A DNA stretch of 64,000 nt from Escherichia coli phage phiS. How positions within the stretch are numbered: the stretch's first letter is position 1; every line of letters begins with the position of its first letter. This document shows positions 25,046 to 30,431 of the stretch, piece after piece. The stretch is taken from the sequence record PP449093.1; one strand, given 5' to 3'. The notes below the pieces were generated by a model. The model saw nothing but the letters and a program-made list of their open reading frames with translations. It was not told the DNA's origin and ran no database searches. The position numbers were made by a program, and so were the translations under genes.

Positions 25046-25053
25046 TATTTATA
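25046..25053 (-). promoter_or_regulatory. T4-type late promoter TATAAATA upstream of gp34
   Basis: Minus-strand TATAAATA about 28 nt upstream of the gp34 ATG; AGGAG SD in between. Confidence 0.55.
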
Positions 25054-25091: not shown

Positions 25092-25277
25092 ATGGTTAAA
25101 TTTGATTTGTCAGATGGTGCAAAATGGGTAGTTGACAGAATCCCTGATAAGGATTACAATTATTTCCGTGCCGAATTAAACAATGCAATTCTGCGAGTTA
25201 TGGAGAAATACGGGTATGATCGTGAAGTATCTAACTCGTTTGGCGAATATGTTGTTGTGAGAGTGGAGAGAACTTAA
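25092..25277 (+). CDS. hypothetical protein (61 aa)
   Basis: ORF with AGAGGA SD. Confidence 0.5.
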   Translation: MVKFDLSDGAKWVVDRIPDKDYNYFRAELNNAILRVMEKYGYDREVSNSFGEYVVVRVERT

Positions 25278-25279
25278 TT

Positions 25280-26227
25280 ATGACGTATAACCCGTTTACA
25301 AAAACTACCGCTACACTTAATGATTTCTTCGATGATCCAGAAGATAAACTACCGGAAGGTGTGCATTTGATTGATATGTCACAGCTTATGATTGCTACTA
25401 TCTCTCATACATTTAAACCGGAAGATCCTATTAATGAAGGCATGATCCGTCATCTTATTCTTGACACCATGCGTTATAATATGACAAAATTCAAAGAGCA
25501 ATACCCAATAACGGTACTTGCATTCGATTCAAGCAAAGGTTACTGGCGACGTGATATCGCCCCTTACTATAAACGCAACCGTAAGGAAAAACGAGACGCA
25601 GATCCGCGTGATTGGGAGATGATCTTTGCTGCGATCAATAAGATCACCGAAGAGTTTAAAGAGAACATGCCTTATCACGTTATTAAGGTTGACAAAGTTG
25701 AGGCAGATGATATAATCGCTGTGTTAACTAAAAAGTTTTCTGTAGAAGGTCGTCAGGTGCTAATCAACTCCGGCGATGGTGACTACACACAGTTACACAA
25801 ATACAAAAATGTGAAACAGTGGGCGCCAGTACAGAAAGCATGGAAGAAATGCAAATATGGTAGCCCTTACAAAGACCTTATGGTAAAATGTGTTAAGGGT
25901 GACGCAAAAGACGGTGTGGCTTCTGTCAAGTGTCGTAGTGATTTCATTATCTCTCGACTGGAAGGGGAACGAGCTAAACCAATTGCAACCAAATGGTTAG
26001 AGCAAATTTTCGATGCCGAAGATCCAAAGTCTTTGATGACAGAGGAAGAAGCACGACGTTTTGACGAAAACCGCGAACTTATTGATTTCGATTACATCCC
26101 AGACAATATTCAGAATCAGATTCTGGAGTCATGGGAAAAATCTAAACCAGCACCACGCGGTAAAATTTATAACTATTTTGTAACAAATGCGTTAGTTAAA
26201 ATGTTGCAGAAAATTGGTGAGTTCTAA
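25280..26227 (+). CDS. rnh: RNase H (5 prime-3 prime exonuclease, FEN-1 family)
   Basis: Strong resemblance to T4 RNase H (GYWRRD, YKKNRK, DKVEADDIIAVLTKKFS, GDGDYTQLHKY.NVKQW, GKIYNYFV). Confidence 0.9.
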   Translation: MTYNPFTKTTATLNDFFDDPEDKLPEGVHLIDMSQLMIATISHTFKPEDPINEGMIRHLILDTMRYNMTKFKEQYPITVLAFDSSKGYWRRDIAPYYKRNRKEKRDADPRDWEMIFAAINKITEEFKENMPYHVIKVDKVEADDIIAVLTKKFSVEGRQVLINSGDGDYTQLHKYKNVKQWAPVQKAWKKCKYGSPYKDLMVKCVKGDAKDGVASVKCRSDFIISRLEGERAKPIATKWLEQIFDAEDPKSLMTEEEARRFDENRELIDFDYIPDNIQNQILESWEKSKPAPRGKIYNYFVTNALVKMLQKIGEF

Positions 26228-26237
26228 GGGTTGACAT

Positions 26238-26834
26238 ATGAAAGAACTTGAATTAAAATACTATGCACACTCACAAATTGGCGTCGAAACCATCTGTGAT
26301 TTGTGGGTAGCAATGTATGACGGGTACAATCTCGTAGACCGAGATAACATTCTAAAACACGAATTTTATTATGATACCGAAGATCATGCACTGCGTCGAA
26401 AAGGAATTTATGCTCGACTTGACGTTAATAGATCATTGATCATGGTCAAAATAGGTGATGGTGAATCTGGACCATTCAACCGAGAAGAAATTACTTTTTC
26501 AACAATGGATGATTTCTATCATTATGTTGATAGTCTGGGTGTTAACTCCGACCTTATCGTTCCTTTACTGCAAGTAAAGACATATCGCAAGTCATTGACA
26601 CTTGACCTTGAGGGTGCTATAGTGGAAATGTGCAAAGACACTTTCTATTATTGCATAGTCGGCGAAAGAATGGGAGAGGCTCACTATGAACTTGAGTTCG
26701 AGTTAAAATCAGGTGATGAAAAAGCACTTGGCATTATCCGAGAAATGATGCTAGAATATGTGGGTGACGATTTAAGTCCTAGCGAAATCTCAAAAGCTGA
26801 ACGTGGTTTTCAATTAATGACGAAAGAGGGTTAA
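26238..26834 (+). CDS. CYTH-like (triphosphate tunnel metalloenzyme / class IV adenylate cyclase-like) protein
   Basis: N-terminal ELELK (ExExK signature); conserved Arg/Lys/Glu pattern; C-terminal HYELEFELK strand; no T4 counterpart recalled at this locus. Confidence 0.5.
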   Translation: MKELELKYYAHSQIGVETICDLWVAMYDGYNLVDRDNILKHEFYYDTEDHALRRKGIYARLDVNRSLIMVKIGDGESGPFNREEITFSTMDDFYHYVDSLGVNSDLIVPLLQVKTYRKSLTLDLEGAIVEMCKDTFYYCIVGERMGEAHYELEFELKSGDEKALGIIREMMLEYVGDDLSPSEISKAERGFQLMTKEG

Positions 26835-26839
26835 ATATT

Positions 26840-27115
26840 ATGACTGAACAGAAAAAAGAAAAAGTAGTATTCGATGAAAATGTACACGGAAATACCCTGG
26901 CACAACTGATTAAAGAAGCCAGCGATCAGAAAACCATTCAAGAAGCATATGGCGATAAGATCAAAGAGATCAAACAGCGTGCTAAAGAAGAATTAGGCGT
27001 AGATGGTAAAATGTGGGGCATTCTGTTTAAACTGTATCACCAGCAACAGCGCGAAACCTTCGAAGCAGAACGCGATGAAGCAGTAGAACTCTATGATCGG
27101 GTGTTCAATGCTTAA
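26840..27115 (+). CDS. dsbA: double-stranded DNA-binding protein DsbA (late transcription)
   Basis: 91 aa; resembles T4 DsbA (DE..HG..LA..IKEASD, ELGVDGKM, FEAE..E.VELYD.VF). Confidence 0.8.
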   Translation: MTEQKKEKVVFDENVHGNTLAQLIKEASDQKTIQEAYGDKIKEIKQRAKEELGVDGKMWGILFKLYHQQQRETFEAERDEAVELYDRVFNA

Positions 27116-27371: not shown

Positions 27372-28052
27372 ATGATCAGAAACCGTCTTCCTCCAGATCC
27401 AGATATGCGAATTAATGCTAAATCTGTGTATATGTTATATTGCATGATGAAAGCTCATATGAACGGGCGTTATGATTGCGTAAAATATAATTGGAGGATG
27501 CGGTTATCTGATGCCGCATTCAATAAACGCAGAGATAAGTATTATTTCGCGAAATTAGCGGAAAAATACAATCTAAGAGAATTATACTTTCTATTCCTAA
27601 GCAATCTGGTAGCCAATACCGATGCATGGGTAGGTGAAATCACTGATGTTGACGCATACGGCTTTTATATGGAATACATAGGAAAGATAACCGATGCAGC
27701 AACACGATTTGACGATGACATTAAAAGTCTGGTATACTTCTCCGAGAAACGCGGGGTTACTCTTAAAGAGCTAATTACATACAATCCCGCAACCGAAACT
27801 AGCGGTATCTTTAAACTACTGCAAAATCGGATTATATCGTTTGAGTCGTTTATGTTGTTAGATAGCTTTCTAAATATAATCGACGAACACGACAAGGTAG
27901 CCAAAGACTTGATTTGGCAAACTTATAGTGTTAAAATGAAGGCGTACAAGAAACTACTTGTTATTGACGCCGCAAAAGCAAGAGCATTATTTGTTAAAGT
28001 AGTTAAAGAGTGTAAAGAAATATCTCAATTAAAAGCCGAAACAAATAGTTGA
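27372..28052 (+). CDS. 59: helicase loader / gp41 assembly protein gp59
   Basis: Resembles T4 gp59 (KSVY.LY.M.K.HMNG.YD..KYNW.MR.SDAA..KRRDKY.F.KL.EKY, FLSNLVAN.DAW.G.I.D.DA). Confidence 0.9.
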   Translation: MIRNRLPPDPDMRINAKSVYMLYCMMKAHMNGRYDCVKYNWRMRLSDAAFNKRRDKYYFAKLAEKYNLRELYFLFLSNLVANTDAWVGEITDVDAYGFYMEYIGKITDAATRFDDDIKSLVYFSEKRGVTLKELITYNPATETSGIFKLLQNRIISFESFMLLDSFLNIIDEHDKVAKDLIWQTYSVKMKAYKKLLVIDAAKARALFVKVVKECKEISQLKAETNS

Positions 28053-28076
28053 CAAGTAAACTTAAATCTGTATAAT
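28049..28076 (+). promoter_or_regulatory. sigma70-like promoter upstream of gene 32
   Basis: TTGACA, 16 nt spacer, TATAAT. Confidence 0.55.
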
Positions 28077-28118
28077 AGTCTAGCAAATTAATAGTTAATG
28101 TATAAAAGAGGTATAATT

Positions 28119-29066
28119 ATGAACATTTTTCGTCGTCAAGATTCTTCCAAACTGCAAGCTCAACTGGCAGCACTGAAAGGTAGCAACGGCTTCTCCAAAG
28201 AAGATCCGAAAGAGTGGAAGATTAAGACTGATGCAGCAGGTAACGGTGAAGCCCTGATTCGCTTCCTGCCGTCTAAGACAGAAGACGGTCTGCCGATTGT
28301 GAAACTGGTAAACCATTCCTTCAAAGTTAATGGCAAATGGTATTGGGAAAACTGCTCCAGCACCCACGGTGATTTTGATTCTTGCCCTGTGTGCAAATAT
28401 ATTAACGAAAAAGATCTGTACAATACCGATAAAACAGAATGGCAACTGATTAAGCGTAAAGCCTCTTACTACGCAAATATTCTGGTACTGAAAGATCCTC
28501 AAGCACCAGAAAATGAAGGTAATGTATTCAAATTCCGCTTCGGTCAGAAAATTTATGATAAGATCGTTGCAATGGTGAACGTGAATACCGACATGGGCGA
28601 AGTTCCGGTAGATGTAACTTGTGTGTTCTCCGGTGCTAACTTCCTCCTGAAAGCTAAGAAGGTTGATAAACACCAGAACTATGATGATTCTCGTTTCATG
28701 CAGCAATCACAGCTTCCGAAAATTGAAGACGAAGCATATCAGAAATATCTGATGGAAAACATGGTTGACCTGAGTGAGATTGTAGCGCCTAGCCAGTTTA
28801 AACCGTTCGATGAACTGGAAACCAAATTTAAGAAAACTATGGGCGTTTCTATGGTAGCTGGTGCTGCGGCTTCCAGTGCTGCGGCAGCGATTAACAGCCA
28901 GCTTGACGATTTTGACGCACAGATGAATGCATTCGATTCTGGTATAACCGCAGCTAGCACGGCGTTAGATTCTTCCGCTGATGACCTGATGGCATCTCTG
29001 GACCTGGGTGGCGGTACTTCCTCCGCTTCTGATCTGGATGATCTTGACGCTCTGTTAGGGATGTAA
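28119..29066 (+). CDS. 32: single-stranded DNA-binding protein gp32
   Basis: Resembles T4 gp32 (IRFLPSK, KWY.E.CSSTHGD.DS, CKYI...DLYNTD, PENEG.VFK.RFG.KI.DKI.AM, acidic Ala-rich C-terminus). Confidence 0.9.
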   Translation: MNIFRRQDSSKLQAQLAALKGSNGFSKEDPKEWKIKTDAAGNGEALIRFLPSKTEDGLPIVKLVNHSFKVNGKWYWENCSSTHGDFDSCPVCKYINEKDLYNTDKTEWQLIKRKASYYANILVLKDPQAPENEGNVFKFRFGQKIYDKIVAMVNVNTDMGEVPVDVTCVFSGANFLLKAKKVDKHQNYDDSRFMQQSQLPKIEDEAYQKYLMENMVDLSEIVAPSQFKPFDELETKFKKTMGVSMVAGAAASSAAAAINSQLDDFDAQMNAFDSGITAASTALDSSADDLMASLDLGGGTSSASDLDDLDALLGM

Positions 29067-29128: not shown

Positions 29129-29156
29129 TTGACATGCTGATGTTAGGATGTATAAT
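29129..29156 (+). promoter_or_regulatory. sigma70-like early promoter
   Basis: AAAAAGGTGTTGACA, 16 nt spacer, TATAAT, ACAAACATCGAAAC leader. Confidence 0.6.
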
Positions 29157-29186
29157 ACAAACATCGAAACAAAGGAGGATAAAAAT

Positions 29187-30431
29187 ATGAAAACTTACTT
29201 TGCAAAAGATGTTTGTTATATTATCAAAAATAAATCCGTCTCAAAAACACCAGAACATTACGAGAATCTCTCAATAAGTTATGCATTGTCTCATGGTTTC
29301 GTTTATTTGGGGTTTATTGGAGAATATTCTGGATGCCAAACCCTGTCAAATTTTGAATGTAAAAGACATGGAACGTTTGCGGTCAGAGTAAAAAATCTAA
29401 ATCATGCTAAACATGGTTGCCCAAACTGTGCCCTTGAGAATAGGGCAGAAAAAAGAAAATTGAGTATAGAAAAGATTTATAACGACATAAATCGAATCTG
29501 TGATGAGAACGGAACCATAGAATTAACAGAAATTAAAGGTGGGTATAAAACAACAAAAACACGAAATTTATTTTTTAAATGTAAATTGTGTAATGGCATG
29601 TTTAATACATCACATGATCATTTAAAACGAGGTCAAGCATGTCCAAAATGTCGGTATAAAAAAATTTCTGTGTGTAATACTAGAAACCAACTTGATATTG
29701 AACTTGACATAAAAATAGAATGTAAAAAAAGAAAAACCGTTGAATTTGTAGAATTTGAAAATGGATATTGCAGATACAAGTCAAAAAATTTAATAATGAG
29801 ATGTTTGCGTGGACACGGAAATTACACAACAACAGCAAACGACTTTTTTAAGGGATGTGGTTGTCCTACATGCGGAGGAACGAAAAGACTAACAGAAAAA
29901 CAAGCATCTGAACAAATGATAAAAGAGTGTGAAATTAGAGGTTATGATTTTTTGGGATTTTTTAATGGGTATAAAAAGTCGGCAGAACCTAATGCAAAAT
30001 TAAAATGTAAACGCAGCGGGGTAAGTTTTTATACATCACACAACAATTTTATGAAAGGACAAAACTGTAAGTGTTGCTCTGAATTTGGATATAGAACAAC
30101 GAAATCTGGTGTTTTCTATGTACAGAAACTGTTAGAAAATAATATTTTTTGTGGTGTTAAATTTGGTGTAACCAATAGAACAACAAAAGAACGAATTGGA
30201 GGTCAATCTCGCCTTTCCAAATTCGACCACGAGATCTTTTATGAACTTACTTTACAAGACGGTCAAAAGATCTTAGACTTAGAGAACAAGATCAAGGAAG
30301 CGATGAAAGGTAAAACTTCCTATATCTCAAAAGAAGATATGCCGGATGGCTACACAGAGACAGTAGCACCGTCCGAATTGAGCACTATCATGTATATCGT
30401 AAAATCTTTTGAAAAAGAGTTGACAAAGTAA
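29187..30431 (+). CDS. Cys-rich protein: four tandem zinc-ribbon-like repeats plus C-terminal GIY-YIG-like domain
   Basis: Four repeats of about 28 aa ending in GCPxC / CPKC / CPTCGG / CKCC; C-terminal GVFYVQ...KFGVTNRTTKERI...EIFYEL; locus matches the T4 segG neighbourhood. Confidence 0.5.
   Translation: MKTYFAKDVCYIIKNKSVSKTPEHYENLSISYALSHGFVYLGFIGEYSGCQTLSNFECKRHGTFAVRVKNLNHAKHGCPNCALENRAEKRKLSIEKIYNDINRICDENGTIELTEIKGGYKTTKTRNLFFKCKLCNGMFNTSHDHLKRGQACPKCRYKKISVCNTRNQLDIELDIKIECKKRKTVEFVEFENGYCRYKSKNLIMRCLRGHGNYTTTANDFFKGCGCPTCGGTKRLTEKQASEQMIKECEIRGYDFLGFFNGYKKSAEPNAKLKCKRSGVSFYTSHNNFMKGQNCKCCSEFGYRTTKSGVFYVQKLLENNIFCGVKFGVTNRTTKERIGGQSRLSKFDHEIFYELTLQDGQKILDLENKIKEAMKGKTSYISKEDMPDGYTETVAPSELSTIMYIVKSFEKELTK

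Follow-up and report, generated by a model that had tools for sequence, protein, structure and literature searches.

Nearly all characterized enzymes of the CYTH-proper branch of the triphosphate tunnel metalloenzyme (TTM) superfamily (NeuTTM, CthTTM, YgiF, AtTTM3, SaTTM and HpAC1) prefer inorganic triphosphate (PPPi) as their substrate in vitro, a picture that is partly supported by the literature. For the N-terminal TTM domain of Escherichia coli YgiF (PDB 5a60/5a61), roles of individual tunnel residues have been described: Glu160 is the ligand that makes metal site 1 complete; metal 2, which activates the attacking water, is bound by Glu4, Glu6 and Glu162; Arg56 is catalytically essential; and Lys69 binds the substrate and orients Glu4 (Martinez et al. 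2015, PMC4641920). Here we describe a gene from Escherichia coli phage phiS whose product is predicted to correspond to this domain, without the linker or the CHAD domain of YgiF. The DNA analyzed is a stretch of 64,000 nucleotides (record PP449093.1; hereafter, the window), and the gene (26238-26834, + strand) starts with ATG and encodes a protein of 198 aa (22.9 kDa, pI 4.7, N-terminus MKELELKYYA), compared with 433 aa for YgiF. The window belongs to Krischvirus, the RB49-like T4-type coliphages, and the gene, which we call the CYTH gene, is the ortholog of RB49ORF244c (94.9% aa identity). It lies between rnh and dsbA in a 3.1-kb cluster that is 95-99% identical to those of 56 of the 58 records of the genus, with vB_EcoM_G5211 being the closest (98.9% identity). 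In T4 (NC_000866), rnh (149787-150704) and dsbA (149509-149778) lie 8 bp apart with no gene between them, in agreement with the initial annotation of the locus, which said that the two almost adjoin; relative to T4, the CYTH gene is an extra gene at the rnh/dsbA junction.

The gene is less new than that annotation implied, because 2 earlier sources precede it: the GenBank record of RB49 describes RB49ORF244c as “similar to P45267, P30871, HI1598, ygiF”, and Nolan et al. 2006 (PMC1524935) listed it as a Pfam CYTH match (E 0.0026). Its similarity to CYTH and ygiF has therefore been on record for about twenty years. Jumbo phages, too, have been described as carrying CYTH triphosphatases (PMC7824862), further phage CYTH proteins are contained in BFVD, and PHROG 14893, which carries the label “function unknown”, matches the protein over its full length. 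What is new here is the assignment of the fold to the YgiF branch, a residue-by-residue test of the active site, the rejection of the cyclase label, a clade-specific RxD in place of RxR, and an intragenic cassette mosaic. We propose, with a probability of roughly 0.6, that the protein is a catalytically competent, stand-alone TTM triphosphohydrolase of the CYTH-proper branch, which most likely has PPPi as its best substrate in vitro and which is accessory in Krischvirus.

Predicted fold and catalytic residues of the phage CYTH protein

Profile comparisons and a predicted structure place the protein in the CYTH/TTM superfamily, within the CYTH-proper branch and closest to YgiF. The protein matches Pfam CYTH (PF01928) over residues 33-190 with 27.7 bits, against a gathering score of 23.2 (E 2.9e-6), and comparison of the family profile with residues 1-211 of YgiF using hhalign gives a probability of 94.5% (E 7.8e-8). 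An AlphaFold2 model based on the family alignment (pLDDT 89.8, pTM 0.82) contains, according to DSSP, eight long strands and a C-terminal helix; in other words, an antiparallel beta-barrel tunnel with a plug helix. The Foldseek comparison suggested in the initial annotation returned E. coli YgiF (5a60) as the top match in the PDB (E 8.9e-13, TM 0.77, 24% identity), and the other 42 matches with E<=1e-3 are TTM enzymes or have the TTM-like fold of Mediator Med18/20. NeuTTM, CthTTM, SaTTM (a dimer) and BH2851 (2gfg) are less similar to the phage protein than YgiF is, and Cet1-like RNA triphosphatases are not closer in structure or sequence than CYTH-proper enzymes. Other viral TTMs, comprising CYTH proteins of uncultured and jumbo phages and the Cet1-like RNA triphosphatases of giant viruses, poxviruses and baculoviruses, have the superfamily in common with the phage protein and show distant structural likeness only (Foldseek E 4e-8 and weaker, 10-16% identity). 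In the reverse direction, tblastn with the YgiF tunnel domain retrieves the Krischvirus gene (E ~1e-4, 27-28% identity over 90-98% of the query). A phmmer search against PDB sequences finds YgiF only marginally (E 0.13); profile and fold methods were needed. A scan of the protein against NCBIfam gave no match, nor was a CHAD domain matched; the chain stops 4 residues past the plug helix. The CYTH membership proposed in the initial annotation is thus borne out by a predicted CYTH fold and by the presence of the catalytic acidic and basic residues in alignments with CYTH members.

We mapped these residues onto YgiF by hhalign profile-profile and MAFFT alignments, and read their conservation from an alignment of 21 members (A1), a MAFFT alignment of 14 sequences that includes 7 representatives of the phage clade and bacterial homologs (A2), and a further alignment (A3). 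Fold and residue conservation are in this sense shown: the mapped residues are invariant or nearly so across the phage clade and the bacterial homologs, and each of the YgiF residues known to be important from mutagenesis or crystallography (E4, E6, R56, K69, E160 and E162) has an invariant counterpart (E3, E5, R60, K71, E153 and E155, respectively). The ExExK signature, correctly recognized from the outset as ELELK, comprises residues 3-7 on strand beta1 (26244-26258, + strand, as for all features of this gene); its E3, E5 and K7 align with E4, E6 and K8 of YgiF and are invariant in A1, A2 and A3, and E3 and E5 are predicted to coordinate the metal at site 2. The (W/Y)xRxR motif has its counterpart in Y58-A-R60-L-D62 (26409-26423), in which R60 corresponds to YgiF R56 and D62 replaces YgiF R58. 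K71 (26448-26450), which MAFFT aligns with YgiF K69 and hhalign places one residue off, is invariant in A1 and A3 and nearly so in A2. On beta5, R82-E83-E84 (26481-26489) supplies with R82 and E84 the equivalents of YgiF R81 and E83 (basic tunnel wall and acidic patch), invariant in 14/14 sequences of A2. The invariant R117 (26586-26588) corresponds to the phosphate-binding YgiF R126, while E130 and D134 are the equivalents of E139 and D143. On beta8, the strand HYELEFELK (residues 149-157, 26682-26708) contributes E153 (YgiF E160, predicted metal site 1) and E155 (YgiF E162, predicted metal site 2). The initial annotation had the protein ending with this strand; the strand is present, but in the model it is followed by a helix, a short strand and then the plug helix. 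The latter, KAERGFQLM (residues 186-194, 26793-26819), is delimited by DSSP on the model and by the alignments and has an entropy of 0.11; S185-K186-A-E-R189-G190 corresponds to SKAARG in YgiF.

The side of each strand that faces the tunnel was assigned from strand periodicity. In 8/8 strands an invariant face is opposed to a variable one; the invariant faces are formed by residues 3/5/7/9; 40/42/44/46; 58/60/62; 71; 80/82/84; 115/117/121/123; 130/132/134/136/138; and 151/153/155/157. The most variable elements are the outer helices alpha1 (13-29) and alpha3 (90-99), with entropies of 1.2-1.4. As far as alignments can speak, these invariant inner faces are the signature of a preserved tunnel interior and of a working enzyme.

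The canonical RxR of YgiF (R56/R58) is not kept in the phage protein, which has Asp62 in place of R58 and Tyr58 in place of Gly54. In contrast, NeuTTM, CthTTM, SaTTM and BH2851 keep the canonical RxR, and the bacterial homologs mostly do so as well. Asp62 is invariant in the 21-member alignment and is found in 6/7 clade representatives, with Asn in the seventh (P0045); Tyr58 is replaced by Val or Ile in the remote clade members P0044 and P0045. In AtTTM3, the second Arg of RxR can be changed to Ala without strong loss of catalysis (PMC4641920). Because this substitution is tolerated, Asp62 more likely tunes specificity or metal binding than abolishes activity.

Distribution and mosaic evolution

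The distribution and the mosaic evolution of the gene can be observed directly. It occurs in 58/58 Krischvirus records that hold the cluster, and tblastn searches of 50,697 phage records that used as queries a remote member of the clade and the tunnel domain of YgiF found it in no other cultured phage lineage at E<=0.01; the matches outside Krischvirus look like bacterial sequence filed as phage. A scan of IMG/VR with the clade profile returned 3 loci only, all of them Krischvirus-like. The family as a whole is narrow, with 43 clusters at 90% identity; its longest contigs measure ~165 kb, which is the scale of a phage genome. Searching 1.84 billion representatives with the 21-member profile yielded 235 proteins with E<=1e-3, 6 of which reach E<=1e-10, and the remote matches that were sampled are stand-alone CYTH or CYTH-CHAD proteins. 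Three remote homologs (44%, 36% and 30% identity) lie on metagenomic contigs with diverged T4-like backbones, whose rnh is 79% and whose dsbA is 65-78% identical to that of the window, and in which the order is again rnh-CYTH-dsbA. This shared order implies that the gene has been held at this position by descent while outpacing its neighbors. The nearest cellular relatives are scattered and include, for example, an archaeal metagenome-assembled genome; no sign of a recent capture of the host ygiF was seen in these sequences.

Within Krischvirus, the CYTH gene is the divergence hot spot of a cluster that is otherwise ~97% identical. Between the window and phage Skers, aa identity is 98.4% for rnh and 100% for both dsbA and gene 33, whereas it is 57% for the CYTH protein (66% nt identity for its gene). 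Comparison with the locus of Skers (L003) and with 2 further loci (L008 and L011) delimits an internal hypervariable cassette of ~420 nt (26262-26681, + strand, about codons 9-148) that has been exchanged between Krischvirus alleles: in 30-nt windows, identity to Skers is 100% up to 26261, averages ~55% inside the cassette and returns to 93-100% from 26682; for the flanking DNA, identity to Skers amounts to 97-100%. The number of synonymous substitutions per site (dS) is ~1 inside the cassette, compared with 0.07 in codons 151-198. Both junctions lie inside the open reading frame (ORF), on the DNA encoding the ExExKYY and ELEFELK motifs, which makes the locus a clean example of intragenic cassette exchange with junctions on catalytic-motif DNA. 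At least 3 allele classes occur in the genus, with ~95%, 83% and 57% identity to the window.

This structure affects how the conservation of the C-terminus is to be read. Codons 151-198 are ~97% identical in DNA, and we therefore reject in part the explanation of C-terminal hyperconservation as a pure protein constraint: given the low dS, the conservation of the C-terminal 48 residues largely reflects the shared flank of the recombination mosaic, and not only constraint on the protein. For the CYTH gene, the ratio of nonsynonymous to synonymous substitution rates is 0.21-0.36, as against 0-0.1 for the core neighbors, so that the CYTH gene is under purifying but relaxed selection. In vB_EcoM_G2494 (MK327935.1, L015 401-996), a 1-bp deletion at nt 175 (codon 59, just before Arg60) splits the gene into ORFs of 66 aa and 130 aa; it represents either a knockout that arose naturally or an error in sequencing. 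Should the deletion be real, plaques can form without the gene. This frameshift is the probable origin of the 130-aa fragments P0034 and BFVD A0A482GBZ4.

Two candidate causes of the hot spot were considered and rejected. Co-conversion by a homing endonuclease does not fit, as the endonuclease gene of PHB13 lies ~1.1 kb away, between gene 34 and ORF246; as to the idea that PeSL promoter cassettes drive the mosaic, Arbiol et al. (PMC2839356) do not mention the CYTH locus. Homing-endonuclease genes are found around the cluster between gene 34 and ORF246 in PHB13 (L016 629-1048), FL15 and G37-3, and between genes 59 and 32 in Skers (HNH, L003 5302-5898) and T4 (SegG, L002 1910-2542); none adjoins the CYTH gene. 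Gene 32 (28098-29066) is another mosaic hot spot of this cluster, with 2 allele classes in Krischvirus: those of the window, RB49, Phi1 and Skers are mutually 96-98% identical, whereas those of Brandy and JK32 show ~81% aa identity and a dS of 0.47-0.59, despite a near-identical gene 59 alongside.

Proposed activity and competing explanations

We infer the activity, substrate, expression timing and physiological role of the protein from its likeness to characterized enzymes and from its genomic context, and model it after the two-metal mechanism solved for YgiF and AtTTM3. A triphosphate-Mg2+/Mn2+ complex would enter the eight-stranded beta-barrel, one end of which would be plugged by the C-terminal helix; E153 would complete metal site 1, R60 would stabilize the beta-gamma bridging oxygen, and K7, K71, R82, R117, K186 and R189 would bind the phosphates. 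Inorganic phosphate would then be released from the triphosphate, so that the protein would act as a hydrolase and not as a cyclase. Because almost every characterized CYTH-proper enzyme prefers PPPi, this is the likeliest substrate in vitro; in addition, the enzyme may possess some activity on nucleoside triphosphates (NTPs) or other organic triphosphates, and Asp62, which replaces a phosphate-binding Arg, may shift its specificity. In the phage, it would be a non-essential accessory enzyme of the Krischvirus lineage. No new mechanism is indicated so far, but a compact 198-aa TTM that is present genus-wide and carries a natural Arg-to-Asp change in its tunnel could inform TTM specificity, and may offer a handle on why cells and a phage hydrolyze PPPi.

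A number of points weigh against this proposal. The protein shares no more than 23-28% identity with YgiF and lacks the CHAD domain of the latter, and the tunnel geometry and residue orientation rest on strand periodicity only. Asp62 (Asn in one member) puts an acidic group on the tunnel-facing side of its strand, where it could change the substrate or the metal stoichiometry, and Tyr58 occupies the position of the aromatic residue that in thiamine triphosphatases (ThTPases) stacks on the thiazole ring of thiamine, hinting at an organic triphosphate. Promoter support for the gene consists of consensus matches only. We found no functional or biochemical study of a member of the phage CYTH/TTM clade in the literature, and even in the case of YgiF it is poorly understood what PPPi hydrolysis does for the cell.

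It is possible, and we entertain it tentatively, that fold and chemistry are as proposed while the true substrate is an organic triphosphate, such as NTPs or dNTPs, ITP/dITP, or thiamine or adenosine-thiamine triphosphate, in which case the enzyme would edit a pool of nucleotides or cofactors in the infected cell. Y58 takes the place of the aromatic residue that ThTPases have in (W/Y)xRxR, the clade-specific Asp62 removes a phosphate-binding Arg, and the tunnel has extra invariant aromatic and polar residues facing inward (Y9, Y44, F136, Y138 and C132). Moreover, jumbo-phage CYTH triphosphatases have been proposed to degrade NTPs (Iyer et al. 2021, PMC7824862), and SaTTM converts ATP to ADP. 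However, no nucleobase-recognition motif is identifiable, Y58 gives way to V and I in remote clade members, and the second Arg, required by ThTPases for the beta and gamma phosphates, is missing. The ThTPase motif is represented by Y58 and R60, with Asp62 in place of the second Arg that the WxRxR of the mammalian 25-kDa enzyme (3bhd, 5a64) contains; the remote members P0044 and P0045 of the phage clade have Val or Ile instead of the aromatic residue. In addition, ThTPases form a separate, animal-specific cluster (PMC8233210).

We consider it unlikely that the protein is a counter-defense factor, that is, an enzyme destroying a triphosphate-bearing molecule of host immunity or stress, which could be PPPi from dGTPase or dNTP-triphosphohydrolase defenses, ITP/dITP from deaminase defenses, or a 5'-triphosphorylated linear oligonucleotide signal. 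The evolutionary pattern is what lends this idea its appeal: an accessory gene confined to one lineage evolves much faster than any other gene of a conserved core cluster (57% aa identity to Skers, compared with 98-100% for its neighbors), its alleles are discrete cassettes swapped by recombination, a variable surface surrounds a frozen active site, and the frameshift in one isolate suggests that the gene is dispensable on permissive hosts. PPPi is, moreover, released by bacterial dGTPase defenses. If counter-defense were its role, cassette exchange around a frozen site would represent an arms race in which, for example, the enzyme evades an inhibitor or sensor of the host, and the protein would be the first TTM enzyme in phage-host conflict and give a physiological context to the PPPi/YgiF axis. 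However, fast evolution and mosaicism are common among accessory genes of T4-type phages (PMC2839356), a free triphosphate is lacking in the known immune second messengers (cyclic oligonucleotides, gcADPR, cCMP/cUMP), and PPPi hydrolysis would not restore depleted dNTPs. The protein matches no PADLOC model at E<=1, in addition to having no NCBIfam match. Literature on CYTH/TTM enzymes in counter-defense, on ygiF and phage, on Krischvirus and defense, and on the accessory-gene screen of Silas et al. revealed no link, and we found no paper that ties a CYTH/TTM enzyme to counter-defense.

An RNA 5'-triphosphatase acting on pppRNA ends, which would aid RNase H in the removal of Okazaki primers or mark host mRNAs for decay by RppH and RNase E, is quite improbable. 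The gene directly follows rnh in a replication cluster, with a gap of 10 nt and no terminator found between them, and the TTM superfamily, including enzymes among the structural matches, comprises Cet1-type and viral capping RNA triphosphatases. Nevertheless, adjacency in T4-type genomes is often not functional, and T4 replicates without such a gene. The structural comparison also argues against this activity, and the protein retains a plug helix at its C-terminus, a typical trait of CYTH enzymes that act on small molecules; the viral capping enzymes that act on RNA ends are multidomain proteins.

Finally, a class IV adenylate (nucleotidyl) cyclase (AC-IV) producing cAMP or another cyclic nucleotide is hardly credible and was rejected, since all 3 motifs of true class IV cyclases (HFxxxxExExK, a small neutral residue instead of the first Arg of RxR, and ExA instead of ExE on beta8; Vogt et al. 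2021, PMC8233210) are absent: M1-K2 alone precede E3, leaving no HF four residues before ExExK, the first Arg is kept as a nearly invariant R60, and the second Glu of ExE is kept as the invariant E155. The initial annotation had seen the pattern of class IV cyclases and triphosphatases, and the cyclase half of that description, with the making of a second messenger, is not supported. Class IV cyclases (CyaB, YpAC-IV; 2fjt, 3n10) share the superfamily fold and ExExK with the phage protein, and this likeness is the source of the name “adenylate cyclase” in some phage records; among the similarity matches, AC-IV ranks well below YgiF, BH2851, plant TTM3 and ThTPase. GenBank gives that product name in PHB13, AV108 and KMB43, in apparent favor of a cyclase, but “adenylate cyclase” is the historical default name of CYTH proteins (PMC3440374), and judged by the motifs these labels are unsupported. 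The label “inorganic triphosphatase” in the records of Makalu phages is closer; we suggest that the name should be CYTH/TTM triphosphohydrolase (YgiF-like).

Expression signals and neighboring genes

The gene is tightly packed between its neighbors. Upstream lies rnh (25280-26227, + strand), encoding the T4-type RNase H/5'-3' exonuclease (Pfam RNaseH_C 1.3e-39, 5_3_exonuc_N 6.3e-18), whose stop codon is separated by 10 nt from the ATG of the CYTH gene; downstream, after 5 nt, follows dsbA (26840-27115, + strand), encoding the late-transcription dsDNA-binding protein (Pfam Phage_DsbA 5.4e-22). By Pfam and PHROG profiles, dsbA is followed by genes 33, 59 and 32, in this order. The sequence AAGGG (26226-26230, + strand), which overlaps the rnh stop codon, lies 7 nt before the ATG and is conserved across alleles, is the likely Shine-Dalgarno sequence of the CYTH gene. 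The last CYTH codons, K196-E197-G198, contain AAAGAGGG (26823-26830, + strand), which by its position would be the Shine-Dalgarno sequence of dsbA (ATG at 26840). No terminator-like site was found between rnh, the CYTH gene and dsbA. From this arrangement, the CYTH gene probably shares a transcript with rnh, and its translation is probably coupled to that of dsbA. Tight translational coupling also appears along the cluster, gene 33 overlapping the end of dsbA by 23 nt (27093-27115).

Between 24900 and 28200 we found 24 sigma70-like sites, compared with 10.5 +/- 3.1 expected, nearly all of them on the + strand. Among them, sites with 12/12 matches occur within rnh (25689-25716) and a short distance upstream of gene 32 (28049-28076). 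This excess, made up of consensus matches only, fits early transcription by the host polymerase. A site with 11/12 matches (26231-26259) overlaps the start codon of the CYTH gene, with its -35 element in the Shine-Dalgarno region and its -10 element inside the ExExKY codons. As a promoter of the CYTH gene it was rejected, as it cannot transcribe the start of the gene, and its conservation is not independent evidence because both hexamers are constrained by the Shine-Dalgarno sequence and the ExExKY codons. A core of a T4-type late promoter, TATAAATA (25046-25053, - strand), is situated upstream of gene 34, in a divergent intergenic region of 74 bp; late-promoter octamers number 4 in the 64-kb window against 5.9 expected, which is no more than chance.

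Two further ORFs of this region were noted. The 61-aa ORF between gene 34 and rnh (25092-25277), the counterpart of RB49ORF246c (PHROG 3594, function unknown), is 95-98% conserved across Krischvirus, and T4 has no counterpart at that position. Downstream of gene 32, a 427-aa ORF (29148-30431) with repeated Cys-pair (CxxC) modules is the counterpart of RB49ORF239c, for which a weak DUF723 match was listed in 2006; at the same position, Skers carries a “putative GIY-YIG nuclease family protein”.

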